DNA of 39,114 nucleotides from Phycisphaeraceae bacterium (GCA_003562195.1 PWVT01000090.1:1-39114); one strand, 5' to 3'; positions 1,762 to 36,135 are shown, counted from the stretch's first letter. Notes: a model not told the origin generated them from the sequence alone. Translations and numbers: made by a program.

Positions 1762-1852
1762 TCCGCCGCTTCGCAAGCCGGTCAGGAGGATGACAGTCAT
1801 GTCACGGCGCAGGACGTATCGTTGGAGCAACGCCCTGCAATGGAGCCGAACC

Positions 1853-2608
1853 ATGACCGCAAATCATGCGCGTATCCTGGTGTTCCCGGCGATGCTCTTG
1901 GCCCTGCTCGCCGCCCGTGGATGCACGAGCACAACCAGCCACCACGGCATTTCACCCGATTTTACCCGCATGTCAGTGTTGCCACCCGACGCCGCGTTGG
2001 CCATTGCCGATTTTTTCCCCGAACGAACCGAAGCGGTGCAGTTTCGATTCATCGACAATCCCAGCGGCCTCGACACAATCGAGTTCATGCGAGAACCAAC
2101 CGATCGTCACGGGGCCAGTTGGGCAACTTCGGAAGGTGAAACGCGAGTTGACTATTGGGCAAGCGACGGGGCGGGCAACGTGCAGCTCAAAGCTGTGCTT
2201 GACGTTGAAGACGGTACCGTCAGCCACTTCGATCCTCCATTGACAGTCCCTGCGGATTTGGCCCCAGGTATACCGCACCGCGAGCAGGTCGCCATGCGCG
2301 TCGTCGATGCTCGCAAGCCGAAGAAACAAAAAGCAGCCGGTACCGCAACTCGAACGCTCGAATATGTGGACAATCAGCGTATACGAATAGACGGTCGTGA
2401 TGTCGTCGCCCAACGACTCGTCTCCCATTTGAAATGCGATCTTGGGATGGCCACGGCGGAAATCTCCACGACCTACTTCATCGTTCCCGGCATCGGATTG
2501 GTCGCCGAGCAAAGCAAAGAAGAGATTCGCGTGCTCGGCGTGTTCGGCCGCTCCAACAATCGGACCATTGTGCGAATCGCTGACGACTCACGAAATGTGA
2601 CACGTTGA
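1853..2608 (+). CDS. putative lipoprotein, function unknown
   Basis: ORF track 1790..2608. The ATG at 1853 gives MTANHARILVFPAMLLALLAARGC, a signal peptide ending in a lipobox-like A-R-G-C. No catalytic motif recognised. Start is uncertain (1790 or 1853). Confidence 0.5.
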   Translation: MTANHARILVFPAMLLALLAARGCTSTTSHHGISPDFTRMSVLPPDAALAIADFFPERTEAVQFRFIDNPSGLDTIEFMREPTDRHGASWATSEGETRVDYWASDGAGNVQLKAVLDVEDGTVSHFDPPLTVPADLAPGIPHREQVAMRVVDARKPKKQKAAGTATRTLEYVDNQRIRIDGRDVVAQRLVSHLKCDLGMATAEISTTYFIVPGIGLVAEQSKEEIRVLGVFGRSNNRTIVRIADDSRNVTR

Positions 2609-3946
2609 CACGGCTGTGGCAAGTGCGTCGATCATCTCATTGGGGTACAGCGCAAAGGGCCAGTCACGACGCTGCGCGATCGCGGCATCACTCACTGCTC
2701 GCCGTGCCTGCTCGACACGCTTGTGCGCCTGCTGCACGGCCTCGACATGGACACGACGAAGTTGCTCAAGTTGCTGATGCATCTGAAAGAACGCCGCCTT
2801 GCGCTGTGGTGAACGCCGCGGCAGCCCGTCGACTTGCTTGAGCATGGCGTGCTTCTGCTCACCCGGCGAAGTGCCGCCGGTGACCGATTCTGGATCATGC
2901 CATATCCGCCGCGCTTCGTGCTGAGTCTGCACAACATCGCCCGGCTGATCTACGCCCAGCGGCAATCGCAACGTAGCCGTAGCGACTGCGATCGGCGCGA
3001 CCTCAACACCCAGCCAGTTGCGAATCCAAATTTCCATTGCCCGGTCGTAGTTGGCCCCGCCGGTGCCGTGGATGAATACATCGCACATGCCCAGCCTCAC
3101 CAATGCCGTCATGAACAGCGCGCGTGGCAGCAGCGGCGGCAGTGACGGGTCATCAAGCACCGCCTGCGCATCATTGTCATACGCACGCATGCGCCTGCCA
3201 TCCGGCCGAATACGCCACAGCGGCAGCTCGACATAATCATCTCGAACCAGCAGCGGACCGATGCCCGCCTCCGCCACTTCAGCCACGGCTGCGTTGTACG
3301 CTTCCGCACATGCATGTGGATCATCCGCCATGGCCTGCAGCAATGCTCGACCAAGCGCGGTCTGCCCGAGGTCCGTCGCGGTGACGTTCGTCACCGGCTT
3401 GACCCATCGGGCCATGAGTTCGCTGAGCACCATCGCCATCTGCAGCGCTGCATTGGGCGCATCGGCATGTCGGTGTACCGCTGCGAAAATCCGCTGCACA
3501 CCTTCGCGCACCGACTCACACGCAAACGGCAGATGCATCGGATCACGCGATGGCGTGAACGCGCCTTGCAACCCCATCGGAACATCCTTGCGACTGGGTG
3601 CAAGCTCAACACTTCGCACCGCCAACGAACCATCACCACGTCGAATCGGCACATCGAACGCACCGTAGTGATCCACATGCTGATCAACAATCAGATTCGC
3701 CCGGCCGAAGTCATTCGAATCGGCCACGGCATCCATAACCATGTACTTGATGAGAATCCCCGGATGCCACAGCAGTGTTTGATGCCCGGTGGCGATGATC
3801 GGCCGCTCGGTCGCGAGGCCAAGCTCCAGCCGCGTCTTTTCACGCCATTGACGCTGCGCATGGCCAAACAGCGTGCCGTCGGGCTGCGCCCGTGCCCTGG
3901 CTGCGATGGCCTCCAATTGCGGCTGGATGTGCAAGTCAATACTCAC
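2588..3946 (-). CDS. hypothetical protein, tentatively BshC-like (putative cysteine ligase family)
   Basis: 452-codon ORF. Its GTG start overlaps the stop of the upstream membrane ORF (GTGA at 3943..3946). ATGHQTLLWHPGILIKY followed by IVDQHVDHYGAF loosely resembles the GGQQxGLxxGPxYxxxK ... EDHD region that I recall from BshC. The family assignment is tentative; that it is a CDS is more certain. Confidence 0.5.
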   Translation of the reverse strand: MSIDLHIQPQLEAIAARARAQPDGTLFGHAQRQWREKTRLELGLATERPIIATGHQTLLWHPGILIKYMVMDAVADSNDFGRANLIVDQHVDHYGAFDVPIRRGDGSLAVRSVELAPSRKDVPMGLQGAFTPSRDPMHLPFACESVREGVQRIFAAVHRHADAPNAALQMAMVLSELMARWVKPVTNVTATDLGQTALGRALLQAMADDPHACAEAYNAAVAEVAEAGIGPLLVRDDYVELPLWRIRPDGRRMRAYDNDAQAVLDDPSLPPLLPRALFMTALVRLGMCDVFIHGTGGANYDRAMEIWIRNWLGVEVAPIAVATATLRLPLGVDQPGDVVQTQHEARRIWHDPESVTGGTSPGEQKHAMLKQVDGLPRRSPQRKAAFFQMHQQLEQLRRVHVEAVQQAHKRVEQARRAVSDAAIAQRRDWPFALYPNEMIDALATAVSTCHIS

Positions 3947-11831: not shown

Positions 11832-12100
11832 GCGCGAGTTCTCCTCAATTCAATTGCCCTCCATGCGCTCGTCACAACACAATACCTTGCCTCACACAGT
11901 ATAAATGCGACTGCGGGCAAACGCGAGGATGAATTTAATCACATTGTACGCCAGGGCACGTGCGGTGTAGTGCTGAATTTCCCACCGATCACAGGACAGA
12001 AACTGGCTGACGGCTGAGACCGCACTACGTTCACCTTGACTGATTGCTCTCGTGACTGACGCGACGTACACGATGAGCCAATGCAAAGGGACCTCAAGCG

Positions 12101-12889
12101 ATGAAATCCGTAGCGAGCATCAAAGGGCATCCAATTCATCCAATGCTGATCGCCTTTCCCGTTGCGTTTCTCGTGAGTGCTTTCGGCTGCAACCTGATCG
12201 GCGCGCTGTTCGGTATGCCAGCATGGTGGACAACCGGAGCATGGCTCGCGCTGGCGGGGATCATCGCCGCGCTGGTCGCCGCTGTACCCGGCATCGTTGA
12301 CTACATCTACACCGTTCCGCCGAACAGTTCAGCAAAAACCCGCGCGACCTGGCACATGGTCGTGAACTTCGGTGCGGTGGGCTTGTTCATTGTTGCGTGG
12401 ATACTCCGAGGTAGCGCAAGTGCCGAACCAGGGGGGGCAGTCATTCTGTTGGAAGCAGGCGGTCTGGTCCTGCTGAGCTCTGGTGGTTGGATGGGCGGAA
12501 CGCTGGTGTATCGCAACATGATCGGCGTCAATCACCGCTACGCCGATACAGGCAAGTGGAGCGAAGCGCACTTCGAAAACAACGAGGATGTGCTCACCGT
12601 CGCTAGGACTGACGAACTGAAAGCCAACCAGATGAAGTTGTTGCACGTCGGCGACAAGCGCATCGTCTTGGCGCGCACCGAAAACGGTTTCGCTGCGTTT
12701 GACGATCACTGTTCACATCGCGGCGGATCACTAGCAGGCGGCGTGTTGATGTGCGGCAAAGTGCACTGCCTCTGGCACGGGTCACAGTTTGACGTGAACA
12801 CCGGCAAGCCATGCGCCGGCCCGGCTGAACGTGACATCGGCACGTACCACGTGGAAATCAGCGGCAATGAGATTCGCCTGACGTTATGA
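12101..12889 (+). CDS. membrane (DUF2231-like) domain fused to a Rieske [2Fe-2S] domain
   Basis: The N-terminal part has 4 hydrophobic helices (HPIHPMLIAFPVAFLV...). The C-terminal part has Rieske ligand boxes CSHRGG (12710..) and CLWHGSQF (12767..). Confidence 0.85.
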   Translation: MKSVASIKGHPIHPMLIAFPVAFLVSAFGCNLIGALFGMPAWWTTGAWLALAGIIAALVAAVPGIVDYIYTVPPNSSAKTRATWHMVVNFGAVGLFIVAWILRGSASAEPGGAVILLEAGGLVLLSSGGWMGGTLVYRNMIGVNHRYADTGKWSEAHFENNEDVLTVARTDELKANQMKLLHVGDKRIVLARTENGFAAFDDHCSHRGGSLAGGVLMCGKVHCLWHGSQFDVNTGKPCAGPAERDIGTYHVEISGNEIRLTL

Positions 12890-13186
12890 CCACAGCCAGT
12901 ACGTGACGAACCCCCAGCACACCACGTGCAGCAGAATGATGAACCAGAGCATGGCGATGTACGGTCTCTTGCGATTCTTATGCCGCAATAACCGTTGAGC
13001 GGCGAGCGTGCCCGGCCAACCGCCGAGCAGTTCAAGCGTGTGCAACGACCCTTCGGGTGTGCGCTCAGGTCGATGGCCACCAGCAATTGCGGCGCGTTTG
13101 TCGCGCCACATGGCAAGGTACGTGATGAAGCTCATCACGCCGTACCCGCTCAATACAACCAGCACCCATGTCGGCATGCGGAACAT
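12884..13186 (-). CDS. DUF1294 family small membrane protein
   Basis: DKRAAIAGGHRPERTPEGSLHTLELLGGWPGTLAAQRLLRHKNRK matches the DKxxAxxxxxRIPExxLxxLxxxGGxxGA..xxHKTxK pattern of DUF1294, flanked by two hydrophobic helices. Confidence 0.7.
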   Translation of the reverse strand: MFRMPTWVLVVLSGYGVMSFITYLAMWRDKRAAIAGGHRPERTPEGSLHTLELLGGWPGTLAAQRLLRHKNRKRPYIAMLWFIILLHVVCWGFVTYWLWS

Positions 13187-13231
13187 CCTACCGCATCACA
13201 CGAACCGGCATTCCACCGGAGCCGCACTGCG

Positions 13232-13840
13232 ATGCCGGCTCGGGTAGCATCGATCATGTCCCCCACAATTCGCCTTACGCTGCTGCCTCTGATCGTACTC
13301 TCGCTCATGCACACGGGGTGCGCCCAGTATCGTTATCACCTGACACAGCCGGAGGAAGTGGCTGGCTCCATCCCCGCTCGGGAATCGATTTCCGTGGAGT
13401 TCGACCCGCTGGTCTATCAGTTGCGTGAGGTGCAAGGCGCACTTGGAATCAGCATTAACAACCCGACAGAAGTTGCAATAACACTGCTTGGCGAACGCAG
13501 TTACATCGTCGATCCCACGCGCGAGACGCATCCGATACGCAGCGGAACCATTGCCCCAAACAGCCACATCACTCTGATGCTTCCACCACAACCACGCACG
13601 ACACGTGCTGGCCCGCGTGTTGGGTTTGGCGTGGGTGTGGGCACGGGGTATCGCGGCGCAGGTGTGGGCACGGGGTTCTACGGCGACCGCTGGGGCGGCC
13701 ACCACCGCCACTCGTACGTCATCGAAGGCGAGCCGCGCTGGCGATGGACCACCGGGCCGGTGCGCATGCGACTGGTCTATGACCGCAATGGCGAACACAT
13801 TGAACATAACTTCTCGTTCGACCGAGTACGCGTGCGTTAG
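13232..13840 (+). CDS. putative lipoprotein with Gly-rich segment
   Basis: ATGs at 13232/13256 precede IRLTLLPLIVLSLMHTGC (signal peptide plus lipobox-like T-G-C). A glycine-rich GFGVGVGTGYRGAGVGTGFYGDRWGG stretch is present. The track ORF start at 12995 would overlap the divergent DUF1294 gene. Confidence 0.5.
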   Translation: MPARVASIMSPTIRLTLLPLIVLSLMHTGCAQYRYHLTQPEEVAGSIPARESISVEFDPLVYQLREVQGALGISINNPTEVAITLLGERSYIVDPTRETHPIRSGTIAPNSHITLMLPPQPRTTRAGPRVGFGVGVGTGYRGAGVGTGFYGDRWGGHHRHSYVIEGEPRWRWTTGPVRMRLVYDRNGEHIEHNFSFDRVRVR

Positions 13841-15135
13841 CCCGCCCTGCCGACCCCGATCACGCCGACCAACAGATATGTGATGCTGAATAGCGCGAGA
13901 AACACAATTGAGCTGATGCTGAATACGCGCAAGGCCTTTCCTGGCTGAGCTGCAATGGGCATGTACGCGCTTGTGACCACGCGGAAATTGATATACGCCA
14001 ACACCGGAGCGGTCAGGAACGAGAGCGTGGTGGCGAGATCGACCAGATCGGTCAATTGCCCGCCGAGAAATGCAAGGATGATCAAGGCGATCAGCGCTTG
14101 AGTTGCCACCCAGCCGGCGTAGGTGCGGCCGGCCTGCTTACGCGTCGGCTCATCGCCGCGCATGGTCGCAGTCAGCCGCTGCATGACGCGCGGAAACGCA
14201 TCGAGCACGACCAGCGTGGTGCTGAACATGGTGGTAAACGCAGCAACAGCGATGATCGGCATGCTCCATGATCCAAGCGTACTGCCGTACAGTTCAATGA
14301 ACTGTCGGGCAAAGCCCGCACCGCCTGCGGCGAACGCATCCTCACGACCAAACATGACCAAAGCCCCCAGCGTGAGAAACAGAACCGCCACAGATGCCGC
14401 GAGAATGTAGCCGAAGTTGAAATCAAAGCGTGCCTGGCGCATGGTCGCGGTATGGCCGGTTTGCCGGGCACGCTCCTGCATCCAGATGGAATGCCAAATC
14501 GCCGAGTCGATGGGAATCGGCATCCAGCCCATGAACGCGAGGATGAACCCAAACGCACTGAGCGTCCACCATGATGGCGGCGAGGTCTCAACGACATACT
14601 CCGAAGGCGAAGCAACGGCGACAACGACGGCTGCAATCGTGGAAACCAACAGCACCGCCATCACCAGTTTCATCGTCGAATCTAACAGCGCATACCGCCC
14701 AAGAATCAGCAGCAGCACACACGCAAGCACGATGACGCCGCTCCAGACCAATGGCGTCAGCGCCACCGGTAGCACCGGGCCGAACAGTAATCCCGCGAGC
14801 GCAGCGGTGACGATCGTCAGCGCTGCCATGATGATGAACATCGTCCCCACGGTGACGATCAGGCACATCCACAGCGCCCACTGGCCGAGTCGGCGATACC
14901 CGTCGATGAGCGTCTCACCAGTGGCGGCCGCATAGCGCGGCCCGAACTCGAGAAACGGATATTTCGTCGCACACGCCAGGATGAGCAGGCCGAGCATACC
15001 AAAGCGAAAATCCGCACCCGCCCGGGTGGCCTGCACAAGGTGCGACACGCCGATCGCTGCCCCGGCGAGCAGAATCCCCGGCCCGATCGCCTTGAGCAAC
15101 CCCCGCCGCATCGCATCGCTTGGTGTGACCTGCAT
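13837..15135 (-). CDS. NRAMP-related (COG1914-like) polytopic membrane transporter
   Basis: About 11 hydrophobic helices. The N-terminal GPGILLAGAAIGVSHLVQATRAGADFRFGMLGLLIL ... EFGPRYAAATGETLIDGYRR resembles the NRAMP-family divalent metal transporter subgroup that lacks the DPGN motif. The ATG at 15135 is preferred over 15255. Confidence 0.6.
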   Translation of the reverse strand: MQVTPSDAMRRGLLKAIGPGILLAGAAIGVSHLVQATRAGADFRFGMLGLLILACATKYPFLEFGPRYAAATGETLIDGYRRLGQWALWMCLIVTVGTMFIIMAALTIVTAALAGLLFGPVLPVALTPLVWSGVIVLACVLLLILGRYALLDSTMKLVMAVLLVSTIAAVVVAVASPSEYVVETSPPSWWTLSAFGFILAFMGWMPIPIDSAIWHSIWMQERARQTGHTATMRQARFDFNFGYILAASVAVLFLTLGALVMFGREDAFAAGGAGFARQFIELYGSTLGSWSMPIIAVAAFTTMFSTTLVVLDAFPRVMQRLTATMRGDEPTRKQAGRTYAGWVATQALIALIILAFLGGQLTDLVDLATTLSFLTAPVLAYINFRVVTSAYMPIAAQPGKALRVFSISSIVFLALFSITYLLVGVIGVGRAG

Positions 15136-15481
15136 CGCGAGACATTCTGACGAGTCGAACCGATTTCGCAATATTCTTTCCAGTCCACGCCGAGCGTGTC
15201 TAACCCCGGACTCCATCGATACTTGCAGCAAATCGACCTGCTTATCAAGCTCCATGCTGCAGAAGAAACTGTGAAGCTGCGTAATTTTTCGTCACATGCA
15301 CCGCGCGACGCGCATCTCTGCACATGTGTGGGTGGTAACGTCCACGACCGGAGCAAATCCCGAGGCAGGAACTCCGAGACGAAGGCCCACGCTTGATGTC
15401 ACGACGCTGCCGCGTCGGCTGACAACGGTGTCAGTCTGCCGCAGCGCACGATCAACAGCATGGAATAAGGAACTCAAAAGG

Positions 15482-17935
15482 ATGGCACAACACACACATC
15501 GTCTGGCGGCACTCTCGTGCGGCGCGATGATGCTCGCCTCGGCGGGATCAATTGCGTTGACCGCAACGCCAACAGCCGCACAGGCATATGCCCCACAATC
15601 GATCGGCCCGGAGCAGGGCATCATTGAGCGTGCTCAGCCGATCATTCTCGATACACATCAACTCGTACAATCAGCCGGAGATCGTGAAGCATTTCCGACG
15701 CTCGAAGTGACAGTCTTTGATGATCGCGAGTTGACGGTCACCTGGCAGCGAACGCGCATCATCAACCCGCAACGATTTACTTTGCACGGCACCGTCGATG
15801 GTGTGGCCGGATCGGATGTCATCTTTGCCCACAACGAGGGTGCTGTGTTCGGGGTCATCAATGCGCCGAACATCGGGCACTTTCGCATTCGCCGCGATGG
15901 CGAGGTCGTCATGCTCGAGCAATTCAGTGACCGCGACGTTCCATGCGCGACGGATGATGAGCGATCACGCCTGATGTCGCGCGTGCACCGTATACGACCA
16001 GCAGGCCTGCCGCCGCAGCCGATCAATAGTGGCGATCCGCCGGAAATCAGCGTGCTCGTCGCGTACACCCCCGCTGCCAAGTTGTATGCAGGCGGCGAGG
16101 CGGACATGATCGCTGCGATTGACGCTGCCATTGCCGAAACACAGGCATCGTTTGACAACAGCGAGATTGACGCAACGGTCGTGCTCGCGCTGGCACACGA
16201 AACGGACTACATCGAAGGCCAAATGACTCAAGACCTCAATCGGATGCTCAATCCGGTCAATGGGTACATGGATGAACTGCACGAGCTGCGCGCCCAGCAC
16301 GAGGCGGATCTTGTCGCGCTCATTTCCATGTCAACCGGGTACTGTGGTCTTGCGAAGTGCGTGGCCATCCCATCGCTCGATTTCGCACCGAACGCGTTCA
16401 GCGTCACCCGCGCCACGTGCCTGGGCAACTTCACCTTCACGCATGAGCTTGGCCACAACATGGGCTGCCATCACGATCGGGACAACGCCTGCTGTCCCGG
16501 CTCCGGCTCGGGATGCGGGTCATACGATTTCTCCTATGGCCATCGCTTCACGGGCAACGATGATGTGCTCTATCGCACTGTGATGGCCTATTCACCAGGT
16601 CAGCGAATCCTGCACTTCTCGAACCCGGATGTAATGCACGAAGGTGTACCCACGGGCGTACCTGAAGGCGATCCTCGCTCAGCGGACAACGCCAAGACCA
16701 TTAATCTCAATGCAGACATTGTCTCGCAGTGGGGCCAGGTCCAGTACCTCTGCGGGGCGCCGATCAATACATTGCATGTGCCATCCAACTACAGCACCAT
16801 CCAGGCGGCCATTGATGCAGCGGATGATTGTGATCTCATCCTTGTTGCGCCAGGGACCTACAACGAATTGATTGACTTTCAGGGCAAGGCCATCACCGTC
16901 GAGTCCACTGGTGGGCCGGACGTGACCATCATCAGCGGCGATGGGCTCAGCGGCAGCGTCGTGACGTTCGCCAACAATGAGTGGGTCGATTCCCGACTGA
17001 TCGGTTTCACCGTGACCGAAGGAACTGGTACCAGCATACACGGCTCCACGGACACCTTCGGTGGTGGGCTGTTTGTCGTCGGCAGCGATCCTGTGATTGA
17101 GAACTGTGTCGTGACCGCAAACGATGCGACCTACGGTGGTGGCGTCGTGATCTCGAACGGTAAAGTGGTGTTCTTCGACACCATCATCAGCGACAACACG
17201 GCAGTCAGTGGCGGCGGCATTGCCAGCGGGGTCAATCTCGGCGGCGGAACTGCCATCTTCAACAACTGCAGTATTGCTGATAACACTGTCAGCGACAACG
17301 GCGGCGGGATCATTGCCGACCGTGGCACGATGATCCTGCGCGGCACATCCGTCGATAACAACTATGCCGGCCTGCGCGGCGGTGGGATGTACGGCTCGCT
17401 CGTCGGGGTGCTGATCGCCAAAGACGATTCCAGCTTTACCGGCAACTACGGCGATCTGGCTGGCGGTGGAATCTACGTTGCTGGCACGTACACGGTCTCT
17501 GCAGACGGTGCGCACTTCGGTTCAAACGCCAGCAATATGTCCGATGGCAGCGGCGGCGCGATTCACAACGAAGATGCCAATGTGGACATTCACGGTTGCA
17601 GTTTCGCGAACAACTCTGCGCGTAGCGGCGGCGCCTTGTTCAATGGCATTCATGCACAGACGACTGTCCGTGGCTCGTCGTTCTGTGGCAATGAATTGAA
17701 CGACATCACCGGCCCGTGGACCGACAACGGGGCCAACAGCTTCCAGGGCAACTGCCCACCGCCAGTCGGCAATCCGGATCTCAACGGAGACGGCGTTGTG
17801 GATGGGCTGGACCTGCTGATACTTCTGGCAGAGTTTGGCCCCTGCGCCGACCCGAACGACTGCCCCGCAGACCTTAACGGCGACGGTGAAGTTGACATCT
17901 TCGACCTGCTGATCCTGTTGGACAACTGGGGCTGA
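15482..17935 (+). CDS. secreted reprolysin-like (M12B-type) zinc metalloprotease with beta-helix repeats and C-terminal dockerin-like repeats
   Basis: The ATG at 15482 gives the signal peptide MAQHTHRLAALSCGAMMLASAGSIALTATPTAAQA. The zinc site HELGHNMGCHHD (16442..16477) fits HExxHxxGxxHD. Repeated xGGG[ILVM] / FxxN units (ATYGGGVVI, AVSGGGIASG, SDNGGGIIAD, LRGGGMYG, LAGGGIYV, ARSGGALFNG) indicate a parallel beta-helix. The C-terminus carries two DLNGDGxVD..DLLILLxxxG repeats. Confidence 0.8.
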   Translation: MAQHTHRLAALSCGAMMLASAGSIALTATPTAAQAYAPQSIGPEQGIIERAQPIILDTHQLVQSAGDREAFPTLEVTVFDDRELTVTWQRTRIINPQRFTLHGTVDGVAGSDVIFAHNEGAVFGVINAPNIGHFRIRRDGEVVMLEQFSDRDVPCATDDERSRLMSRVHRIRPAGLPPQPINSGDPPEISVLVAYTPAAKLYAGGEADMIAAIDAAIAETQASFDNSEIDATVVLALAHETDYIEGQMTQDLNRMLNPVNGYMDELHELRAQHEADLVALISMSTGYCGLAKCVAIPSLDFAPNAFSVTRATCLGNFTFTHELGHNMGCHHDRDNACCPGSGSGCGSYDFSYGHRFTGNDDVLYRTVMAYSPGQRILHFSNPDVMHEGVPTGVPEGDPRSADNAKTINLNADIVSQWGQVQYLCGAPINTLHVPSNYSTIQAAIDAADDCDLILVAPGTYNELIDFQGKAITVESTGGPDVTIISGDGLSGSVVTFANNEWVDSRLIGFTVTEGTGTSIHGSTDTFGGGLFVVGSDPVIENCVVTANDATYGGGVVISNGKVVFFDTIISDNTAVSGGGIASGVNLGGGTAIFNNCSIADNTVSDNGGGIIADRGTMILRGTSVDNNYAGLRGGGMYGSLVGVLIAKDDSSFTGNYGDLAGGGIYVAGTYTVSADGAHFGSNASNMSDGSGGAIHNEDANVDIHGCSFANNSARSGGALFNGIHAQTTVRGSSFCGNELNDITGPWTDNGANSFQGNCPPPVGNPDLNGDGVVDGLDLLILLAEFGPCADPNDCPADLNGDGEVDIFDLLILLDNWG

Positions 17936-24730: not shown

Positions 24731-24861
24731 GAACGAAAGTCTAACCGACCTTTCATTGTGCCGCGCGGGGCCGATACACATCATCTTTGATCACAGATAG
24801 ACAGAAACTCAAGCGTTGACGAGCCGAAAGAAGAGTGTATAGAGTGTTCGCGGAGGATTGA

Positions 24862-25599
24862 ATGAGCCAGTCAACTCGGTATCGACGGAGCGGAGCCATC
24901 GCGGCGTGCGTGATTGGTGCAGGTGTTCTGACTCTGATTGGTACGGAGGTTCTTGGCATTTCCCTTCGCGGCGGAGATCGCGGTACTGGAAGCGGCACAC
25001 AACAGCAATTGCCGACAACGATGGAGGACTTCTTCCAACCGGGCACACAGCCGGATCCTTCAGGTGAAATCGTCCAGCCGATTATTCACTCCAACAATTG
25101 CGTCGCGTGTCACGGGCAATATCTCCTCGATGAAAAGGTCCCTTCCTATGCTGAGGCGTGGGATGGTTGGATCAACAGCATCAAGGGCCACACCGCCCGC
25201 GACCCCATCTGGAAGGCCGCCGTGGCCATTGCCAATCAGGATGCTGCTGGCGCGGGTGAATATTGCATTCGCTGCCATGTGCCCCGCGGCTGGTTGGCCG
25301 GCCGCTCTGAGACTGGGCTTGTCGAAGATCTTGACGATCTGGATTTTGACGGCGTCAACTGCCACTTCTGTCATCGAGTGGTTAACCCCGTCCTGACCAA
25401 AGACAGCCCCAAAGAAGACGGCCCCATCCTCGCCGCATTGGACTTTCCTCCCACCGGCGCTCCCGGCAATGCACGCTGGGTGCTTGATCCCAATGATGTA
25501 CGACGCGGTCCGTTTGACGATGTGCCACTGAATATGCATGGCGAAGCGGACATCATCTTCTCGCCGTTTCATCTTGAATCCGCCATGTGCGGGACCTGA
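24862..25599 (+). CDS. multihaem cytochrome c-like protein, N-terminal part (ends at an in-frame TGA inside a CXXCH motif)
   Basis: GGAGG lies 5 nt before the ATG at 24862, and there is an N-terminal anchor or signal AIAACVIGAGVLTLIG. Three CXXCH motifs are present: CVACH (25099..25113), CIRCH (25264..25278) and CHFCH (25360..25374). The ORF ends ...SAMCGT-TGA. Confidence 0.7.
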   Translation: MSQSTRYRRSGAIAACVIGAGVLTLIGTEVLGISLRGGDRGTGSGTQQQLPTTMEDFFQPGTQPDPSGEIVQPIIHSNNCVACHGQYLLDEKVPSYAEAWDGWINSIKGHTARDPIWKAAVAIANQDAAGAGEYCIRCHVPRGWLAGRSETGLVEDLDDLDFDGVNCHFCHRVVNPVLTKDSPKEDGPILAALDFPPTGAPGNARWVLDPNDVRRGPFDDVPLNMHGEADIIFSPFHLESAMCGT

Positions 25600-25605
25600 C
25601 ATGAT

Positions 25606-26817
25606 GTGAGCAATCCGGTGTTTGAACGCCAACCCGATGGCAGCTTTGCCATTGGCACGTTCGGTCAGCCGCATTCAACGCAAAACACGCACGACATGAT
25701 GCCCGAGCAACGCACGTACAGCGAATGGCTGCATAGTGATTTTGCCAAGGGCGGCGTGTACTTCCCCGATGGTCGTTTCGGTGGCAATCACGACACCGGC
25801 ATCATGCAATCCTGCCAGGACTGTCACATGCCCAAGAAATTCACCGGTGGGTGCAGCTTCTGGGATGTTGATGGGCTGCCGTTCTTCCCGCGCCCGGACA
25901 TGCCCATGCATCACTTCGCAGGCGGCAATACCTGGGTGCTTGGCGCGATCTATGAACTGTACGGCGAGGACATCGGCCTGACGGCTGAATCCGTTGCCGA
26001 TGCCCAGGAACGCACCGCAGACATGCTCCGCGCTGCATCGGATATGGAACTGGACATCATTGATGATGAACTACGCGTACGAATCATCAACTGGTCCGGC
26101 CACAAGTTGCCCACCGGCTACCCTGAAGGCCGCCGCATGTGGGTCAACGTCAAGTTCTATGACGAACAAGACAATGTCGTCAACGAGCACGGCCATTACG
26201 ATTACAAAACTGCGACGCTCTATGGTGACGACACGAAGGTGTACGAGATGAAGCTCGGTATGGATAAAGACGTTGCCGCAGCAACAGGTCTTGAGCCAGG
26301 CAAGTCATTCCACCTCGTGCTCAACAACGTCGTGCTGCTGGACAATCGCATTCCCCCGCCCGGTTTCACCAACGCAGCGTATGAAAGCGTACTCGCTCAG
26401 CCGGTCAACTACTCCTACGAAGATGGCCAGCATTGGGATGACACGCATTTTGATATCCCTGCTGGAGCAACATCAGCGGTCGCGACGCTGTATTTCCAAA
26501 CGACCAGCCGTGAGTACATTGAGTTCCTGCGCGATCAGAACGTCACCAACTTCGATGGCTTCATCGCTTACGACCTGTGGGAATCTCAAGGCCGCAGCGC
26601 ACCGCTGGATATGGTCAGTTCAGTGATTGACCTAGATGTGCAGCCGGGCAACCCGGCTGATCTCAATGGTGACGGCGTGGTGGATGTCTCAGACCTGCTG
26701 ATCCTGCTGTCCAATTGGGGTCCCTGCCCACGTGGCGACACCTGCCTCGGCGACATCAACAAGGACGGCGTGGTCAATGTGTCAGACCTGCTGATTCTGC
26801 TCGGCAATTGGGGATAA
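25606..26817 (+). CDS. multihaem cytochrome c-like protein, C-terminal part with dockerin-like repeats (same frame as 24862..25599)
   Basis: It is in the same reading frame as the upstream ORF and has no RBS or signal peptide of its own. The only nearby start is a GTG two codons after the TGA. It contains CQDCH (25813..25827) and ends with DLNGDGVVDVSDLLILLSNWG..DINKDGVVNVSDLLILLGNWG. Confidence 0.7.
   Translation: MSNPVFERQPDGSFAIGTFGQPHSTQNTHDMMPEQRTYSEWLHSDFAKGGVYFPDGRFGGNHDTGIMQSCQDCHMPKKFTGGCSFWDVDGLPFFPRPDMPMHHFAGGNTWVLGAIYELYGEDIGLTAESVADAQERTADMLRAASDMELDIIDDELRVRIINWSGHKLPTGYPEGRRMWVNVKFYDEQDNVVNEHGHYDYKTATLYGDDTKVYEMKLGMDKDVAAATGLEPGKSFHLVLNNVVLLDNRIPPPGFTNAAYESVLAQPVNYSYEDGQHWDDTHFDIPAGATSAVATLYFQTTSREYIEFLRDQNVTNFDGFIAYDLWESQGRSAPLDMVSSVIDLDVQPGNPADLNGDGVVDVSDLLILLSNWGPCPRGDTCLGDINKDGVVNVSDLLILLGNWG
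25624..25662 (+). other. hairpin downstream of the in-frame TGA (weak SECIS-like candidate)
   Basis: GAACG/CGTTC (25624..25628 with 25658..25662) encloses CCGATGGCA-GCTT-TGCCATTGG (25634..25655), a 9-bp stem with one G-U pair. The apical loop starts 43 nt after the TGA. Confidence 0.2.
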
Positions 26818-26906
26818 AGGGCCAAATTGGAAATCGCGATCCGGATACGCTGACACCACAGCAATCAAGATCGGCGCTACGAAGCGGGCAAGCCCGCTCG
26901 CTCAAC

Positions 26907-28076
26907 TCATCCAAACAGCGTGTCGAGCAACTCCACGATGCCTTTGCCCTGTGTCGCAATCGTTTCCTTGATCGGACGGCCGGCGGCGATGTCGAGCAGT
27001 TCGCGCACGAGTTTGCTCTCGCCGGCGAAGTCCGCCTTGTTCACCACGAACACATCGGCAATCTCGAGGATTCCTGCCTTGTCCATCTGCACCGCGTCAC
27101 CCATGCCGGGCACGACGACCACGGCCGTGCGATCCACGTAATCGCGGATCTTCGTTTCATTCTGACCTGCACCGACAGTTTCCACGATCAGTTTGTCATA
27201 ACCGGCGCCACCGATGAGTTCGATGATGGCGGGCAAAGTCGAATAGTCCTCGCCGCTGATCGCCAGCGAACGGTAAAAGACATTTTCATCCAGCGCGTTG
27301 AAATCCACACGCAGGCGGTCGCCAAGTAAGGCGCCGTTCGTGATCGGGCTCATGGGGTCGAAGGCGACAACGGCAATCTTCTCACCCCGCCGCACTGCCT
27401 CGGCAGCCATCGATGCAACAAGTGTCGATTTGCCCGCGCCGGGTGAACCGGTCAGGCCGATGACATCCGCCGGCCGTCTCTTCGGTGCATCGGCCACCTC
27501 GCTTCCGCCGTGGACCAGACTCAGGTTGCGTCCCAGCACGGCGGTGACATGGTCGCTGTTGAGCGGTTCGTACGGCTTGGTGGCTTCGCGCACGCCATCG
27601 ACAATGTCCTGCATGGATGTGCCGGTGTGATACAGCTTGTGCACGCCCGCATCGAGCATGGTCTGAACATCTTCCTGGGGAATGATGCCGCCGACGTTGA
27701 TGACCATGTCCGGCCGACCGACCTTCTTGCACTCTTCAATCAACCGCGGGACCAGTACGAGGTGTGAATTGCTCATCATCGAGCAGGCGATGACATCAGC
27801 GTCCTCATCGCGGGCGGAAATGGCCAGACTACGCGGCGTCTGCCAGAGGCCGGAGTAAATCACGTGGACACCGCTGTCGCGCAACGCGCGGGCGATGAGT
27901 TTGACGCCTCGATCGTGGCCATCTAGGCCCATTTTCCCCAACAAAACGCGCGGGCGATGGCTGAGATCGCCGCAACGATCGAGCTTTTCAACAGCCGTGG
28001 TCGGTTCAGTCGTCGGACTTGGCATAGGACCCGCATGATAGCGGGAGAACAGTCCAGAGGACCGGCTGACGGTCAT
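26907..28076 (-). CDS. fusion of methylmalonyl-CoA-mutase-type B12-binding domain and MeaB/ArgK-like G-protein
   Basis: N-terminal half: RVLLGKMGLDGHDRGVKLIARALRDSG..ADVIACSMMSNSH..GGIIP (DxHxxG cobalamin-binding domain). C-terminal half: GLTGSPGAGKST (P-loop), LLGDRLR, VETVGAGQNE, VVNKADF (NKxD), as in MeaB. Start is uncertain (28025, 28076 or GTG 28094). Confidence 0.85.
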   Translation of the reverse strand: MTVSRSSGLFSRYHAGPMPSPTTEPTTAVEKLDRCGDLSHRPRVLLGKMGLDGHDRGVKLIARALRDSGVHVIYSGLWQTPRSLAISARDEDADVIACSMMSNSHLVLVPRLIEECKKVGRPDMVINVGGIIPQEDVQTMLDAGVHKLYHTGTSMQDIVDGVREATKPYEPLNSDHVTAVLGRNLSLVHGGSEVADAPKRRPADVIGLTGSPGAGKSTLVASMAAEAVRRGEKIAVVAFDPMSPITNGALLGDRLRVDFNALDENVFYRSLAISGEDYSTLPAIIELIGGAGYDKLIVETVGAGQNETKIRDYVDRTAVVVVPGMGDAVQMDKAGILEIADVFVVNKADFAGESKLVRELLDIAAGRPIKETIATQGKGIVELLDTLFG

Positions 28077-28108
28077 TTCTCGACGAACGACCACTTCATT
28101 TTTTTAAT

Positions 28109-30129: not shown

Positions 30130-32115
30130 ATGCGCCACATCGTTGTGTTCCTGACAGTCCTGCTTCTCAGCAGTATGACGTTCGCAATTGGTGACGTCCA
30201 CAATGCGGCTACGCATTACAACCGGGCGTTCGAGCATCTGCATCGACTTACCGAAAATGAGCGTATTCTGCTCAGCTACCCCGAGAATCCGACCGCCCCG
30301 CCATCACCTGAGATGCGCGAGGCATTGCGAAAGATGCAACCAGCCCTGCATCATGTTCGCGAAGCTTCCAGACGCCCCTACGCAGATTTTCCGCTTGACT
30401 TCAACGAGGGCTGGTTCCTGCGGCTTCCGCCGCTGCACGATATGCGAACACTGCTCAGTGTGACCTACGCAGACGTGCGCATGCGAGTGCATGACGGGGA
30501 GACAACCATGGCGGCTAAACGGCTGGCCACGGCCTATCGCACGCTACCGCATTTGAGCGACAGCGGCGTCATCATCGCCTCGGTCGTGAACCAGGCTGGC
30601 TTTCATCTGTTGGACGACGCGACGCAGTTTCTGATAGACCAAGGCGCACTCAATGCGGCGGATGCATTGACGGTGTTTCACGCAGTCGATGAATTTGCGG
30701 CACAGACCGACCCGTTCAATCACATCGAAGCCATTCTCGGTGACAGTGAACTGAACTACATCACCGCGCGAAATTTTCTTGAGAGTGGGGAACATGACAT
30801 TCGTGAACTCTTTGGCGATTCCATCGATCCAGAAGGCGTTGACCAGTGGCATAATTTGACCGAAGAGCGACTCGACAATCACATTGCGGCTCATGATGTG
30901 TTCATTGAGGATATGACCGCAGCTTTTGCCATGGACGACCCCGAAGCAGCCGCGGCAGAAGTAGCAAGGTTGCAGGAAGCGTTTCTTGAGAGTGACAACC
31001 TCTTTGCCCATTTGGCACCTTCATATACCACCTATCATGAACGCAAGATCAGGGCAGAGGCCGCTCTGGCTGCACGTGTGCAGTCGCTGCGTGAACTGGT
31101 TGATGGCGATGTGGAGCCGCTGGAACGCGCCAATGCGGCGATGTGGTATCTGCGAGCCGTCGCCGCGCTCGAATCACTCGAACCGGAACAACTCGAAACG
31201 TTGCGAGCGGCTGACCTGGACTGGCATGAACCGTTGCCCGATGAGCTTGTTTCCCTTCTTGAGACGCACCAGCCGATTGTCGAGCTGTTTCACGATGGAT
31301 CTCGCATTCGCCGATGCGACTTCACCTTCACCCGCCGCCATCGCCCGCATCCATTCATGCCGAGTTATGCGCCGGGAATGCGCGATGGTCTGCGACTGCT
31401 GTGTGCCGATGCAGTACGTTTGATGCGCGCGGATCAGCCCGAAGACGCGGCGGAACGACTGGCGACTGCCTACCGCGTCATTGCCCACCTTGCGGGTGAT
31501 GATCAAATCGTCAGCGCACTGACCAGTCATGTGTCGTACCGGCATGTGCACAATCTCATTGAACTCGCCCTCGACACGGAGTTGTTTGATCAATCACAAT
31601 TGGAGTCGCTGTACGTCGCGTTTGATCGCATCGCGCTTGCTGATCCGTTTGGTTACACGAATGCCATCGCCCTGGCGCGGTCACGGCTAATTGACCAGTT
31701 TCACAACCGAAGGCCGTTGCGAGATGAGTTTGCTGATCAGGTTGAGCCATGGAGTCGTGTCGTACAAGAAGCTGATGGTGACCGGCTGCTCGGCTTGCTG
31801 CTCATGAGCGAGATGATTGATCCTCCAAATCTCCCGATGCAACTGCACGATCATCTCGTCTCGCTCGATGATGTCATGCCCCACGCTGGGGTTGAGACCC
31901 TATACGGGCAAATTGAAGCGTTGGCCGAACTCATTGCGGAGGGCGATATTGAAGCGGCTCGCGAGGCCGTACAGGCCGTGGCTGACGTTGATCGTCGCCG
32001 GGGCGAAGCGCGCAGCGACTTGCGGCGGGGATTGATGATGTTCCAAGTGAACCTCGGATCGACGCCGCGCCCGCGCGATGATGCCGTGGCTGATTCCGGA
32101 GAAGCTGATGAATAG
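30130..32115 (+). CDS. secreted, internally duplicated helical-repeat protein, unknown family (paralog A)
   Basis: GGAGG lies 7 nt before the ATG. Signal peptide MRHIVVFLTVLLLSSMTFAIG. It shares motifs with the next two genes: NAATHYxRA, QPALHH, ANAAxWYLR, GSxIRRCDF, PGMRD, AERLAxxYR, ADPFGY. Confidence 0.75.
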   Translation: MRHIVVFLTVLLLSSMTFAIGDVHNAATHYNRAFEHLHRLTENERILLSYPENPTAPPSPEMREALRKMQPALHHVREASRRPYADFPLDFNEGWFLRLPPLHDMRTLLSVTYADVRMRVHDGETTMAAKRLATAYRTLPHLSDSGVIIASVVNQAGFHLLDDATQFLIDQGALNAADALTVFHAVDEFAAQTDPFNHIEAILGDSELNYITARNFLESGEHDIRELFGDSIDPEGVDQWHNLTEERLDNHIAAHDVFIEDMTAAFAMDDPEAAAAEVARLQEAFLESDNLFAHLAPSYTTYHERKIRAEAALAARVQSLRELVDGDVEPLERANAAMWYLRAVAALESLEPEQLETLRAADLDWHEPLPDELVSLLETHQPIVELFHDGSRIRRCDFTFTRRHRPHPFMPSYAPGMRDGLRLLCADAVRLMRADQPEDAAERLATAYRVIAHLAGDDQIVSALTSHVSYRHVHNLIELALDTELFDQSQLESLYVAFDRIALADPFGYTNAIALARSRLIDQFHNRRPLRDEFADQVEPWSRVVQEADGDRLLGLLLMSEMIDPPNLPMQLHDHLVSLDDVMPHAGVETLYGQIEALAELIAEGDIEAAREAVQAVADVDRRRGEARSDLRRGLMMFQVNLGSTPRPRDDAVADSGEADE

Positions 32116-34150
32116 CTGGCGAAAGTTCGTTGTCATAACGATTGCTGCACTCGCATGCTGTTCGTATGTATTCGGCCATGATGGTGGCTATCGAAATGCA
32201 GCGAAGCATTATGAGCGTGCCTTCGAGCGGTATGTCGCATTGTCAAGCGATGATCGGTCGTTGCTCTTGAACTTCGACATAGCAAGCACGCCGCCCACGC
32301 AGGAGATTCGCGATGCGATGCGCCGCGCCCAGCCGATTCTGAATGATTTTCATCGCGCGTCGCTCCAGCCGTACTCAGATTTCCACTTGGATTACAACCA
32401 GGGGTTCAACCTGGTCATCCCCCACGTTGTGCACATGCGCAACATTGTACGTTTGGCAAAGGCGGACGTGCAACTGCGTCTGGCTGATGGTGATTCAGCT
32501 GGAGCAGCCGATCGCCTTGCTGCGATGGGGCGCAATCTTCAACACTACAACGATGATCGGCTCCTGATCAGCAGTCTTGTGAACAGCGCGGTGTACGCAC
32601 TGGTTGACGACACGATCCAGCATGGCCTTGATGCTGCCGCTTTCGATCCCGCTGAAGCATTGAAGATTCTGCAGCCGCTGGAACAACTCAACGCAACGGG
32701 CGACCCGTTCGGTTATCGCGATTCCATCGCAACCGAACAGGACTGGATCGTAATGGCCATGACCGATGCATTCGAAAATGATCGCATGTCCGAAACGCTC
32801 GATCTGATCTGGGTGCCCGATGATGATCACGCCGACCCTACCCGCGATGCATGGAATGCTTTGAAGCAAGATGAATTCGAGTTGCATGTGGCGGCATACG
32901 ACCAGTTCATGGATGGAGTCGTTGAAGTCTTTGCAATGGACGATCCGGACCTTGCAGCGGAGAAGATGACGGAATTTTCGGATGCATTTGTCGACTCCGA
33001 GTACAACCTCTTCGCCACCGTCATCATCAGCTACAATCACATCCTGCGTTCTAAGCATCACAGCGAACGATTGTTGCAGGATCGCATCAGCGACTTGCGA
33101 GATCTGGTTGAGGGTGAGGTTGACGCGCACGCCATCGCCAACGCGGCGGTCTGGTACCTGCGCGGCATCACCTTGCTGAGCGATCTGGATGAGGACGCCA
33201 CAAAGTTACTTCGGGAGGATCATCTCTGGGATACACCGTTGCCCGACGAGCTTGTACAAATGCTCCGTGACACGGCCCAGCCGATCATTCATGAGTTTCG
33301 CATGGGGTCAGAGATACGACGTTGTGATTTTTCCATCGCACGATCGCTTGAGTACCCGCTCATCCCCCGCTACACACCCGGCATGCGCGATGCGTTTCAC
33401 CTACTTCACGCTGATGCCATTCGCTTGATGCACGCAGATGAGCTTGAAGACGCCGCTGAGCGCCTAGCGATCTGCTACCGCATGATCGGACACCTTGGAC
33501 GTGATGCTCAACTGATCAGCGGACTTGTGTCACACACTGCATTTGAACATACACATCTGTTGGTCGAAGCCACCATTGAAGCCGAGCAGTTTACAACTCA
33601 ACAGATTCGAACGGTCGGTGCAGCATTTGACCGCATCGGTCGGGCTGATCCATTCGGCTATGCTGCTGCCGTGCGCATGACGAGACAGGACATTGGCAAG
33701 ACGGCAGAGAATCTTGCTCGCCGAATTGACGCTGATCCGAAAGAGCGGCGCTACCAGATACTCCAGCAGATCATCACTCACGGTCCCCCGGACCAATTGC
33801 TGACGCTCCTGGCCTTGCACGATGCGTACCTGCGACACCGCGAGCAAGAGCTTTTTGAGGCGGGGCACCTGCCCGCCGAGCTGAAAACGACGGTCGTTGA
33901 ACACGATGCACTGATGGACGTGGTCAGCATTGACGATCTGAGCACACTGCGCAATGAAGCCCAACTGGCAATCGCTTCCATGGTCAACACCCCACCATCA
34001 GATGCTGATGCGCACATGTTCGATGGATTAACCACGTTTACGGATATCAACGCCCGCATGCAGCAGGCGCGTGCTGTGCTGCGTATCGGAGCAGCCATGT
34101 TCCATCTCACCACTGCTGCATCGGACACTGAAGAAAGCGATCCGTCATGA
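32108..34150 (+). CDS. secreted, internally duplicated helical-repeat protein, unknown family (paralog B)
   Basis: The ATG at 32108 (GGAG 6 nt upstream) overlaps the stop of paralog A by 8 nt. Signal peptide MNSWRKFVVITIAALACCSYVFG. Same motif set as paralogs A and C. Confidence 0.75.
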   Translation: MNSWRKFVVITIAALACCSYVFGHDGGYRNAAKHYERAFERYVALSSDDRSLLLNFDIASTPPTQEIRDAMRRAQPILNDFHRASLQPYSDFHLDYNQGFNLVIPHVVHMRNIVRLAKADVQLRLADGDSAGAADRLAAMGRNLQHYNDDRLLISSLVNSAVYALVDDTIQHGLDAAAFDPAEALKILQPLEQLNATGDPFGYRDSIATEQDWIVMAMTDAFENDRMSETLDLIWVPDDDHADPTRDAWNALKQDEFELHVAAYDQFMDGVVEVFAMDDPDLAAEKMTEFSDAFVDSEYNLFATVIISYNHILRSKHHSERLLQDRISDLRDLVEGEVDAHAIANAAVWYLRGITLLSDLDEDATKLLREDHLWDTPLPDELVQMLRDTAQPIIHEFRMGSEIRRCDFSIARSLEYPLIPRYTPGMRDAFHLLHADAIRLMHADELEDAAERLAICYRMIGHLGRDAQLISGLVSHTAFEHTHLLVEATIEAEQFTTQQIRTVGAAFDRIGRADPFGYAAAVRMTRQDIGKTAENLARRIDADPKERRYQILQQIITHGPPDQLLTLLALHDAYLRHREQELFEAGHLPAELKTTVVEHDALMDVVSIDDLSTLRNEAQLAIASMVNTPPSDADAHMFDGLTTFTDINARMQQARAVLRIGAAMFHLTTAASDTEESDPS

Positions 34151-36135
34151 AGAGTCTCACGATACACGTGTTTCTTGTGATGATACTGGCAACGCCCGCT
34201 GCGGCGCAGAACGACCATGCCAATGCAGCGACGCATTATCAGCGTGCGATTGATGTGATGGAATCGCTCTCGTGGGATGAGCACAACACCTTCTGGGAGT
34301 ACTACGGCCCGACGTTTTCACCAACCCAGGAACTTCGCGATGCGCTGCGCAAGGCGCAGCCCGCCCTCCATCATTTCAACCGTGGCACTCTGCAAGAATA
34401 TTCCCATTTCAATCTGGACGTTGGCAACGGTGTCGAAATTCCTACATCGCACCTCATGAATTTGCGCAAACTTGCCATGGCGAGCCGGGCTGATGTCAGT
34501 CTACGATTGCACGATGGCGACACCAGCGGGGCAGCCAACCGCATCGCCGCTATGAACCGGTCCATGACGCATTTTCAGGATGATCGCATGTTGGTGAGTT
34601 CGCTCGTCGGCGTTGCGATCAGTGTGTTCACAGACAACTTGATCGAAACCGGACTCGACCATGCAGCGTTTGACCCAAGTGATCTGTTGAGAATGCTGCA
34701 TCCTCTCGAACAGTTCATGGAAAGCAGCGACCCCTTCGGATTCGTCGAGAGTCTTGCGGCCGAACGGGACGCCACATTGATGTTGCTCAATGAAGGAACC
34801 AATGTTGACGGGATCAATGCCAGAGTGCTGACCATGTGGTCTGGCAGTGACACACTCGATCAAGAGCAATTTGACACCTTGTCTAATGACGAATTGTCGC
34901 GACACGTCGATGCATACGACACAACGATGGACGACATCATCGACGCGTTCACGATGGCAGACCGAGAGACCGCTTCGGCCGTCATGGCTGAGATTCAATC
35001 ATCCTTTCTTGAATCGGAACAGAATCTGCTGGCCCCACTCATCGTCATTTACGCCAAGGCGATGGAAAGTCGCAACCTTGCGGAATCAACCGTGCAGGAT
35101 CGCATCACGATGATGCGCGAGCTTCTTGACGATGACGTTGACGCTGTGGACATTGCCAATGCTGCCGTGTGGTACTTGCGTGGCGTAACCGCACTTGACG
35201 AACTGGATGATGACATGCTGACCTCCCTTCGCGAAATGGACATGGCGTGGGACAGCGAGGTTCCGGAGTCGGTCGACACACTTTTACGAGGCAGTGGTGC
35301 ACAGGTCATTGAGCACGTTCGGACCGGATCGAACATTCGTCGCTGCGACTTTTCCATTGCACGCATTTGGTACGATCATCCGCCAATCCCTCACTACGTA
35401 CCGGGCATGCGCGACCTGTTTCGGCTATTGCACGCTGATGCCATTCGCATGATGCAGGTCGGTGAGATTGATGCGGCGGCGGAACGTTTGGCAATCTGCT
35501 ACCGTGTGGTCGATCACCTCAGCGGTGACGGCCAAATGCTCAGTTCGCTCCTTGCACATACCGCCTACGAACATACACACCTGCTCGTCGACTTCGCCAC
35601 GTTTGACAATCGATGGAACCCAGAGCATGTGTACGCTCTGGCTGCAGCGTTCGATCGACTGGGCAGGGCTGACCCTTTCGGGTACGGGCGTGCGTCGTCC
35701 GCCATGCGGGACATGGCTTCAAAGGTGCATCACTACTATGGTGCAAACCGGGTCGTGGACGATGATGACCTTCCTGTAAAATTTGAGAAGTTGCAGTTCA
35801 TGACCGCAGATGAAGCTCTCGCGTTGCTGCAGTTTCACGATGTGATTGAACAGCGACGGCGAGTTCACCTTGCTGAGCACGGTGAATGGGTGCCACCGGA
35901 CACCTCACCGGAATTCTCAATCAACGCACTTCAGGATGTGATCGCACTTGATCGTTTGACAGCATTGTGCAAACAATCAAAGTCAATCAGCAACGAAATG
36001 TTGCAAGAGGCATTCGATTACTCCGAGTTCCCACCATTAATCACATTCACCGAAATCCCAACGCGCATGCAGCAAGCGCGGGATGCGCTGCGTATTGGTG
36101 CAGCCATGTTTCAGCACGCAGGTGATGAGTCCTAG
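34147..36135 (+). CDS. secreted, internally duplicated helical-repeat protein, unknown family (paralog C)
   Basis: ATGA start/stop overlap with paralog B (34147..34150). Signal peptide MKSLTIHVFLVMILATPAAAQ. Same motif set; closest to paralog B. Confidence 0.75.
   Translation: MKSLTIHVFLVMILATPAAAQNDHANAATHYQRAIDVMESLSWDEHNTFWEYYGPTFSPTQELRDALRKAQPALHHFNRGTLQEYSHFNLDVGNGVEIPTSHLMNLRKLAMASRADVSLRLHDGDTSGAANRIAAMNRSMTHFQDDRMLVSSLVGVAISVFTDNLIETGLDHAAFDPSDLLRMLHPLEQFMESSDPFGFVESLAAERDATLMLLNEGTNVDGINARVLTMWSGSDTLDQEQFDTLSNDELSRHVDAYDTTMDDIIDAFTMADRETASAVMAEIQSSFLESEQNLLAPLIVIYAKAMESRNLAESTVQDRITMMRELLDDDVDAVDIANAAVWYLRGVTALDELDDDMLTSLREMDMAWDSEVPESVDTLLRGSGAQVIEHVRTGSNIRRCDFSIARIWYDHPPIPHYVPGMRDLFRLLHADAIRMMQVGEIDAAAERLAICYRVVDHLSGDGQMLSSLLAHTAYEHTHLLVDFATFDNRWNPEHVYALAAAFDRLGRADPFGYGRASSAMRDMASKVHHYYGANRVVDDDDLPVKFEKLQFMTADEALALLQFHDVIEQRRRVHLAEHGEWVPPDTSPEFSINALQDVIALDRLTALCKQSKSISNEMLQEAFDYSEFPPLITFTEIPTRMQQARDALRIGAAMFQHAGDES

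Follow-up and report, generated by a model that had tools for sequence, protein, structure and literature searches.

The locus examined here raises the question of why a stop codon should occupy the place of a haem-attachment cysteine in a multihaem cytochrome gene, and whether that codon is decoded, is a genuine lesion or is an error in the sequence. We analysed a stretch of 39,114 nucleotides from a Phycisphaeraceae bacterium (GCA_003562195.1, PWVT01000090.1:1-39114), hereafter the window, whose genome is Phycisphaerales-like. Two ORFs on its plus strand, 24862..25599 and 25606..26817, share a reading frame, with the TGA at 25597..25599 between them. Reading through this codon gives the peptide ...FHLESAM-C-G-T-[TGA]-H-DVSNPVF..., in which the stop falls on the second cysteine of a CXXCH motif. 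An earlier note, made from the sequence alone, had described this arrangement and proposed three explanations for it: (a) recoding of the UGA, to selenocysteine (Sec) or otherwise dependent on the Sec machinery, (b) a nonsense mutation and (c) a sequencing or assembly error.

The complete gene spans 24862..26817 on the plus strand, as do all of its features described below, and comprises 651 codons including the internal TGA. Its assignment as a pentahaem c-type cytochrome gene draws on 119 full-length homologues, syntenic intact orthologues, an AlphaFold model and a structural match to 5ze8. A Shine-Dalgarno sequence, GGAGGA (24852..24857), can be read directly 4 nt 5' of the ATG at 24862, and the predicted product starts with a hydrophobic export segment, GAIAACVIGAGVLTLIG, which follows basic residues as judged by eye. 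This segment is followed, in order, by a helical five-haem domain, a beta-sandwich domain and a dockerin. Three haem motifs that are kept in homologues lie upstream of the stop, namely motif 1 (CVACH, residues 80-84, 25099..25113), motif 2 (CIRCH, residues 135-139, 25264..25278) and motif 3 (CHFCH, residues 167-171, 25360..25374). Motif 4, C-G-T-[TGA]-H (residues 243-247, 25588..25602), reads CGTCH in the closest orthologues and carries the TGA at residue 246, and motif 5 (CQDCH, residues 318-322, 25813..25827), also kept in homologues, lies 3' of the TGA. Several CXXCH motifs, four of them intact and one interrupted, together with the N-terminal export segment are what is expected of a multihaem c-type cytochrome. 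Further downstream are the motif GHKLPTGYP (residues 413-421, 26098..26124) and a C-terminal dockerin with two calcium-binding repeats (26653..26811), the latter recognised by PF00404, NF041540 and dockerin matches in the PDB.

Both ORFs are parts of one interrupted gene, as shown by the homologues, each of them a single protein of about 640 aa, and by the AlphaFold model of an orthologue, which is one continuous fold. On inspection of the sequence, neither GTG 25606 nor GTG 25618 is preceded by a Shine-Dalgarno sequence, and an export signal is missing from the downstream piece. The possibility of two separate genes was rejected on these combined grounds. The earlier note was thus accurate in its description of the gene: the shared frame, the position of the TGA and the four intact flanking motifs are all present in the sequence, and its conclusion that a downstream piece without ribosome-binding site or signal peptide belongs to the same gene agrees with the length of the homologues and the fold of the model. 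For annotation, this means that the two ORFs belong in a single entry marked as an interrupted gene.

To establish what the codon at this site is in relatives, we compared the read-through protein with its homologues, of which databases hold more than 3,000. The best 119, examined here, are uninterrupted, about 640 aa long and mostly from metagenome-assembled genomes of Phycisphaerales and other Planctomycetota. All 119 have a cysteine at the TGA position and five CXXCH motifs at corresponding positions, and in an alignment of 71 sequences neither of the two motif 4 cysteines nor its histidine varies. The closest intact orthologue (P0001) is 79% identical to the window protein. A sample of this kind is biased at the protein level, since databases would list any relative with the TGA as two separate fragments, and the codon was therefore tested at the DNA level.

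For this we used a degenerate 54-nt DNA pattern representing S-P-x-H-(5 residues)-C-[GA]-x-TGA-H-D-[VL]-x-N, which had one match in the window and none in shuffled sequence. The pattern was found at no locus in the JGI metagenome collection and at no locus in 185,579 species-representative genomes, while the same pattern with TGY was found at 120 loci or more in each of the two collections. Among the 240 matches listed, from at least 240 loci, the codon at the site was TGC in 170 and TGT in 70. The two closest relatives in conserved synteny carry TGC (L121) and TGT (L122), from either of which the TGA is a single transversion away; the gene order shared with the window consists of a sigma factor, a 248-aa ORF, a roughly 200-aa ORF on the opposite strand, the cytochrome and a MeaB-like gene. 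An exact copy of the truncated product (P0007) is on record from no other contig, and the window itself was absent from the collections searched. The TGA is unique to the window contig among the relatives compared.

Recoding would require that this UGA be read either as Sec, giving a CXXUH motif with a selenoether to the haem, or as Cys by a Sec-like tRNA and SelB, with the hairpin downstream serving as an atypical SECIS element. The classic signature of Sec/Cys positions is indeed there, as the UGA aligns with the cysteine of homologues and both flanks are conserved. Recurrence of the UGA at the same position in orthologues or in the wider family was not found, however, either in the two DNA collections or in the 119 best proteins, and the closest orthologues are among those that carry TGY. 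An earlier stop-codon mining study took conservation of an in-frame stop across species as the mark that separates recoding from errors and pseudogenes. Judged by that mark, the TGA in the window fails as a recoding candidate.

The hairpin at 25624..25662 folds as the earlier note had reported, with a 5-bp lower stem, a 9-bp upper stem and a GCUU loop (25643..25646) that begins 43 nt past the UGA. With an energy of -16.9 kcal/mol (z = -4.1 against shuffles) and a G in the first position of its loop, it speaks in favour of a SECIS element. The bacterial SECIS model specifies a loop of 3-9 nt with a G in its first two positions, a stem of 4-16 bp, a UGA-to-loop distance of 16-37 nt and an energy no weaker than -7.5 kcal/mol (PMC13188914). 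The distance here exceeds the upper spacing limit by 6 nt, although the same review notes that some bacterial SECIS elements deviate from the consensus model (PMC13188914). In an implementation restricted to contiguous stems, no hairpin at the TGA complied with the model, whereas 5% of background positions have one that does. Another hairpin, a small one with a UUGA loop, has a spacing of 22 nt and an energy of only -4.0 kcal/mol.

The stability of the 25624..25662 hairpin is also less unusual than it seems, since an equally stable 39-nt element starts 3-45 nt downstream of 12-14% of window positions, and the 84 nt from the UGA onwards fold no better than shuffles (z = -1.59). Nor is the hairpin conserved. 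Among the 240 homologue matches listed, between 0 and 7 of the nine upper-stem pairs are possible, typically 3-4, and two syntenic orthologues form 5/9, one of them while encoding the identical peptide PDGSFAI. On the strength of the folding, its background rate and the listed matches, the hairpin is judged to be incidental.

Other signs of the Sec machinery were sought in the window. Rfam identified a tRNA-Gly only and no SECIS family, ARAGORN detected no tRNA-Sec, and there is no sel gene within the 39 kb. Genome-wide reassignment of TGA was considered separately and rejected, as TGA terminates 14 of the window's 26 other predicted genes and an in-frame stop splits none of the other real genes. 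The nature of the site is a further difficulty for recoding. The second cysteine of a CXXCH motif forms a covalent thioether to the haem and is structural rather than redox-active, so that the TGA stands in an invariant attachment motif and not at a redox-active or catalytic position. The term CXXUH was absent from the literature searched, and a literature search on Phycisphaerae and selenocysteine returned no mention of Phycisphaerae. The earlier note had itself named orthologues uniformly carrying TGC or TGT, with no conserved hairpin downstream, as the pattern that speaks against recoding. This is the pattern that we observed; with no hairpin after the TGA fitting the bacterial SECIS model either, its explanation (a) is refuted as far as sequence comparison reaches, and the evidence points to its explanations (b) and (c) instead.

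We next looked at the state of the remainder of the gene. Apart from the TGA site, 85 of 86 invariant residues are kept, including 54/54 downstream of the stop, and the window protein differs at 3 of 102 near-invariant columns compared with a mean of 4.7 in intact members. Downstream of the stop, pN is 0.12-0.14 and pS 0.58-0.64, the same as between two intact orthologues; synonymous sites are near saturation (pS 0.58-0.75), so the dN/dS test speaks to the recency of the lesion and to little else. An otherwise undamaged gene under normal downstream constraint implies that the lesion is either very recent or an artefact. The other genes common to the window and the syntenic contig are all intact, which indicates that the contig is not generally error-ridden.

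That the stop should have struck a haem cysteine could seem to call for a special explanation. Once the codon is set back to TGC, a stop can be reached in this gene by 182 single-base changes, and for 45 of them the stop is TGA. Ten of these 45 (22%) are at CXXCH cysteines and 14 (31%) at any Cys codon. The position of the TGA is therefore a weak coincidence that needs no special explanation, because TGC and TGT are neighbours of TGA and the gene is rich in haem cysteines. This also calls for caution elsewhere: as a single step turns TGC or TGT into TGA, a TGA aligned with Cys will often be expected by chance.

A plain TGY-to-TGA substitution without programmed decoding is the most likely mechanism. 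We think it somewhat probable that such a non-programmed change from TGC or TGT is truly in the organism's DNA, as a very recent nonsense mutation or a null allele that segregates in the population, and that the cytochrome affected is a periplasmic or surface protein of a conserved kind. Translation from the ATG at 24862 would then stop after 245 residues, and the exported fragment would carry haem motifs 1-3 only, without haems 4 and 5 and without the beta-sandwich and dockerin domains. The 403 codons downstream would not be made as a haem protein, because they have neither a ribosome-binding site nor an export signal, and rare UGA read-through would most likely insert Trp, which is unable to form the second thioether bond. 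The gene would be functionally dead or severely crippled, too recently for further decay to have set in. We also hold it possible, though on balance doubtful, that the organism has TGC or TGT and an intact gene, and that the base at 25599 is a sequencing, consensus or assembly error, arising through a miscalled base, a consensus of low coverage or the assembler's choice of a minority-variant path. The lack of other damage, the normal downstream constraint, the recovery of a universally conserved cysteine by a single base and the restriction of the exact truncated product to this contig would all be expected of an error, and the absence of secondary decay suits an artefact equally well. Loss of so widely conserved a protein might, moreover, be expected to be selected against. 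On the other side, the change is a substitution, unlike the homopolymer indels typical of error-prone long reads, the quality of the contig is good, with its other syntenic genes intact across 39 kb, and at normal coverage a consensus seldom contains a wrong substitution. We favour a real mutation over an error since pseudogenes are commoner in bacterial genomes than substitution errors are in consensus sequences, a matter of general knowledge rather than of data from the window. The division between the two rests on such general expectations, the nearest relative being only 79% identical.

Two further readings would leave the gene with some full-length product. The stop could be a leaky nonsense allele, in which near-cognate read-through yields a little full-length protein and selection is partly kept. 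Of the bacterial stop codons, UGA is the leakiest, and termination is reported to be weak when C follows; the context here is UGA-C and the downstream part is fully intact. A recent lesion explains that intactness equally well, however, and the TGA is unique and has no comparative support. As bacterial read-through of UGA inserts mainly Trp, the product would contain CGTWH and lack the second thioether at an invariant cysteine. We regard this leaky allele as improbable. Programmed recoding is less probable still, given that no locus with TGA was found beside at least 240 with TGY and 119 Cys-containing proteins, and we rate it as very unlikely in spite of the alignment signature, the hairpin and the existence of multihaem cytochrome selenoproteins (MccSep/ExtKL) distantly related to the window family. 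Equally slight is the chance of its most accommodating variant, a very recent Cys-to-Sec conversion in one lineage only, with haem 4 attached by a selenoether and the distant hairpin acting as SECIS. Recoding, if true, would provide the first selenoether attachment of haem in nature and take Sec biology further than redox-active sites.

The non-programmed substitution that we prefer, whether in the organism or in the consensus, affects a cytochrome whose relations to known proteins can be described. The AlphaFold model of P0001 (pLDDT 90.9, pTM 0.86) is predicted to form one continuous fold that is helical as far as about residue 378, is beta-rich at 380-577 and includes the dockerin. In a Foldseek search, the only significant match of this model to a solved structure was 5ze8 (E = 7.5e-15), aligned over 559 columns with a TM-score of 0.65 on the target and 16% identity. 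This structure is the Thermochromatium tepidum pentahaem cytochrome c552, which also has a weak sequence match to the window family over haems 1-3. Cytochrome c552 has 385-435 residues and no dockerin, whereas members of the window family have about 640 and do have one, and c552 itself has no established function. Sequence searches of the PDB, run for the protein as well as for the profile of its family, gave dockerin and calmodulin-like matches only, besides a marginal match to 5ze8; MccSep was undetected in these searches.

A relation to MccSep emerges from the profile NF040886 (ExtKL/MccSep), which has a weak match in 61 of 71 family members (best E = 2e-10). The window protein scores 14.6 bits against it (E = 0.009), and like all the other matches in the family it falls far short of the curated cutoff of 250 bits. 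The window family is a distant relative of MccSep and c552 and not a member of NF040886. MccSep/ExtKL is a pentahaem selenoprotein polysulfide reductase from Geobacter sulfurreducens (PMC13510729) and the only characterised multihaem cytochrome selenoprotein. In it a helical cap with five haems is combined with an Ig-like beta-sandwich, and the haem chain branches at haem 4. By analogy, loss of haem 4 would cut the electron path in the window protein. In the window family, too, the N-terminal helical domain contains five CXXCH motifs and precedes a beta-sandwich, and the motif GH-x-[IL]-P-x-G-[U/Y]-P is shared; the family differs in being about 200 aa longer and in having a dockerin. Its version of the motif, GHKLPTGYP, resembles GHSIPDGUP of MccSep/ExtKL and lies in the region to which the NF040886 profile aligns. 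In the 71-sequence alignment the H of this motif is invariant and the Y at least 90% conserved. The Sec position of MccSep thus appears to be Tyr in the window family, a correspondence drawn from the likeness of the motifs and the profile-matched region rather than from a residue alignment. In MccSep, Sec lies in the peptide VEMTNHAGHSIPDGUPTPNR, where it is catalytic, beside a Cys-ligated haem and outside CXXCH (PMC13510729), and therefore gives no precedent for CXXUH. A review of the selenoproteome lists three multihaem or CXXCH-containing selenoprotein families and gives no Sec motif within a haem-attachment site (PMC13188914). The family of pentahaem cytochromes with a dockerin is widespread and uncharacterised and may merit study in its own right.

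Compared with bacterial selenoprotein genes, the gene in the window has in common a UGA aligned with Cys, conserved flanks and a hairpin downstream. It differs from them in that its UGA is unshared, its hairpin is off-spacing and unconserved, its site is a structural thioether cysteine and the window holds no Sec machinery. The resemblance to an ordinary nonsense-disrupted gene or to a consensus error in a metagenome is much closer, as the traits are the same: a lone stop in frame that one substitution separates from the conserved codon, unique to one contig and without a recoding signal, in a gene that is otherwise intact. The case is that of a routine nonsense change or base error in an ordinary interrupted gene. 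Nothing distinguishes it from other such genes, and its sole curiosity is that the codon hit was that of a haem-attachment cysteine.

The interrupted gene (24862..26817, plus strand) belongs to a family of cytochromes with five haems and a length of about 640 aa, for which a database search returned more than 3,000 matches and in which a dockerin is a frequent C-terminal end. This family is large and so far uncharacterised. Among the matches listed for a DNA pattern of the haem motif 4 context with TGY at the TGA site (loci L001-L120), members from outside the Planctomycetota with the same context were present. The MAG labels among these matches included Eisenbacteria, Gemmatimonadetes, Lysobacterales/Dokdonella, Zixiibacteriota, Thermoanaerobaculia, Vicinamibacteria and Verrucomicrobiota. 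That non-Planctomycetota MAGs carry the cytochrome family suggests its wide distribution or horizontal spread.

A second dockerin protein is encoded at 15296..17935 (plus strand), where an 879-aa reprolysin-like (M12B) metallopeptidase ends in a C-terminal type I dockerin. Over 59 aa, this domain shares 56% identity with that of the intact, syntenic cytochrome orthologue on contig L121. Several secreted proteins of the source organism thus appear to have one common dockerin-based anchoring module. No cohesin partner for the dockerins was seen within the window.

Directly after the cytochrome (26817..26907), the window continues with a MeaB-like gene and no gene between. On L121, three additional genes that the window lacks are located between the two (12065..16099), one for a second dockerin-bearing protein (652 aa) and two ORFs of 129 and 436 aa. 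In the ORF at 26907..28094 (minus strand), residues 49-158 form a B12-binding domain and residues 209-368 a MeaB/ArgK-type GTPase, the two joined in one fusion protein. At 92% identity to its L121 orthologue, this gene shows the highest conservation in the neighbourhood.

Three tandem paralogues without Pfam matches occupy 30130..36135 on the plus strand (661 aa, 30130..32115; 690 aa, 32078..34150; 662 aa, 34147..36135), and are adjoined by an ABC-type permease gene. A single 669-aa gene in L121 is the counterpart of all three (37-47% identity), and a 74-aa ORF just upstream of it matches the N-termini of all three. The trio appears to have arisen when the gene for an unknown protein expanded in tandem within this lineage. 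Elsewhere in the window, a 452-aa minus-strand ORF within 1973..3946 ends at a TGA (2588..2590), past which its frame stays open for approximately 200 codons, down to 1973. This open stretch overlaps a 272-aa plus-strand ORF without a Pfam match (1790..2608) and is probably a GC-rich shadow frame.

The cytochrome family is a distant relative of the pentahaem selenoprotein MccSep/ExtKL (NF040886) and of the Thermochromatium tepidum cytochrome c552 (5ze8). In alignment A1 of the family, 61 of the 71 members matched NF040886 weakly. The Sec site of MccSep, GHSIPDGUP, resembles the motif GHKLPTGYP in the interrupted gene (26098..26124, plus strand), and a Tyr is conserved in the family at the position taken by Sec or Cys in MccSep. 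An extra Cys, C320 in the closest intact orthologue (P0001, 79% identical), is invariant in alignment A1 and might be a candidate counterpart of the MccSep distal haem ligand.
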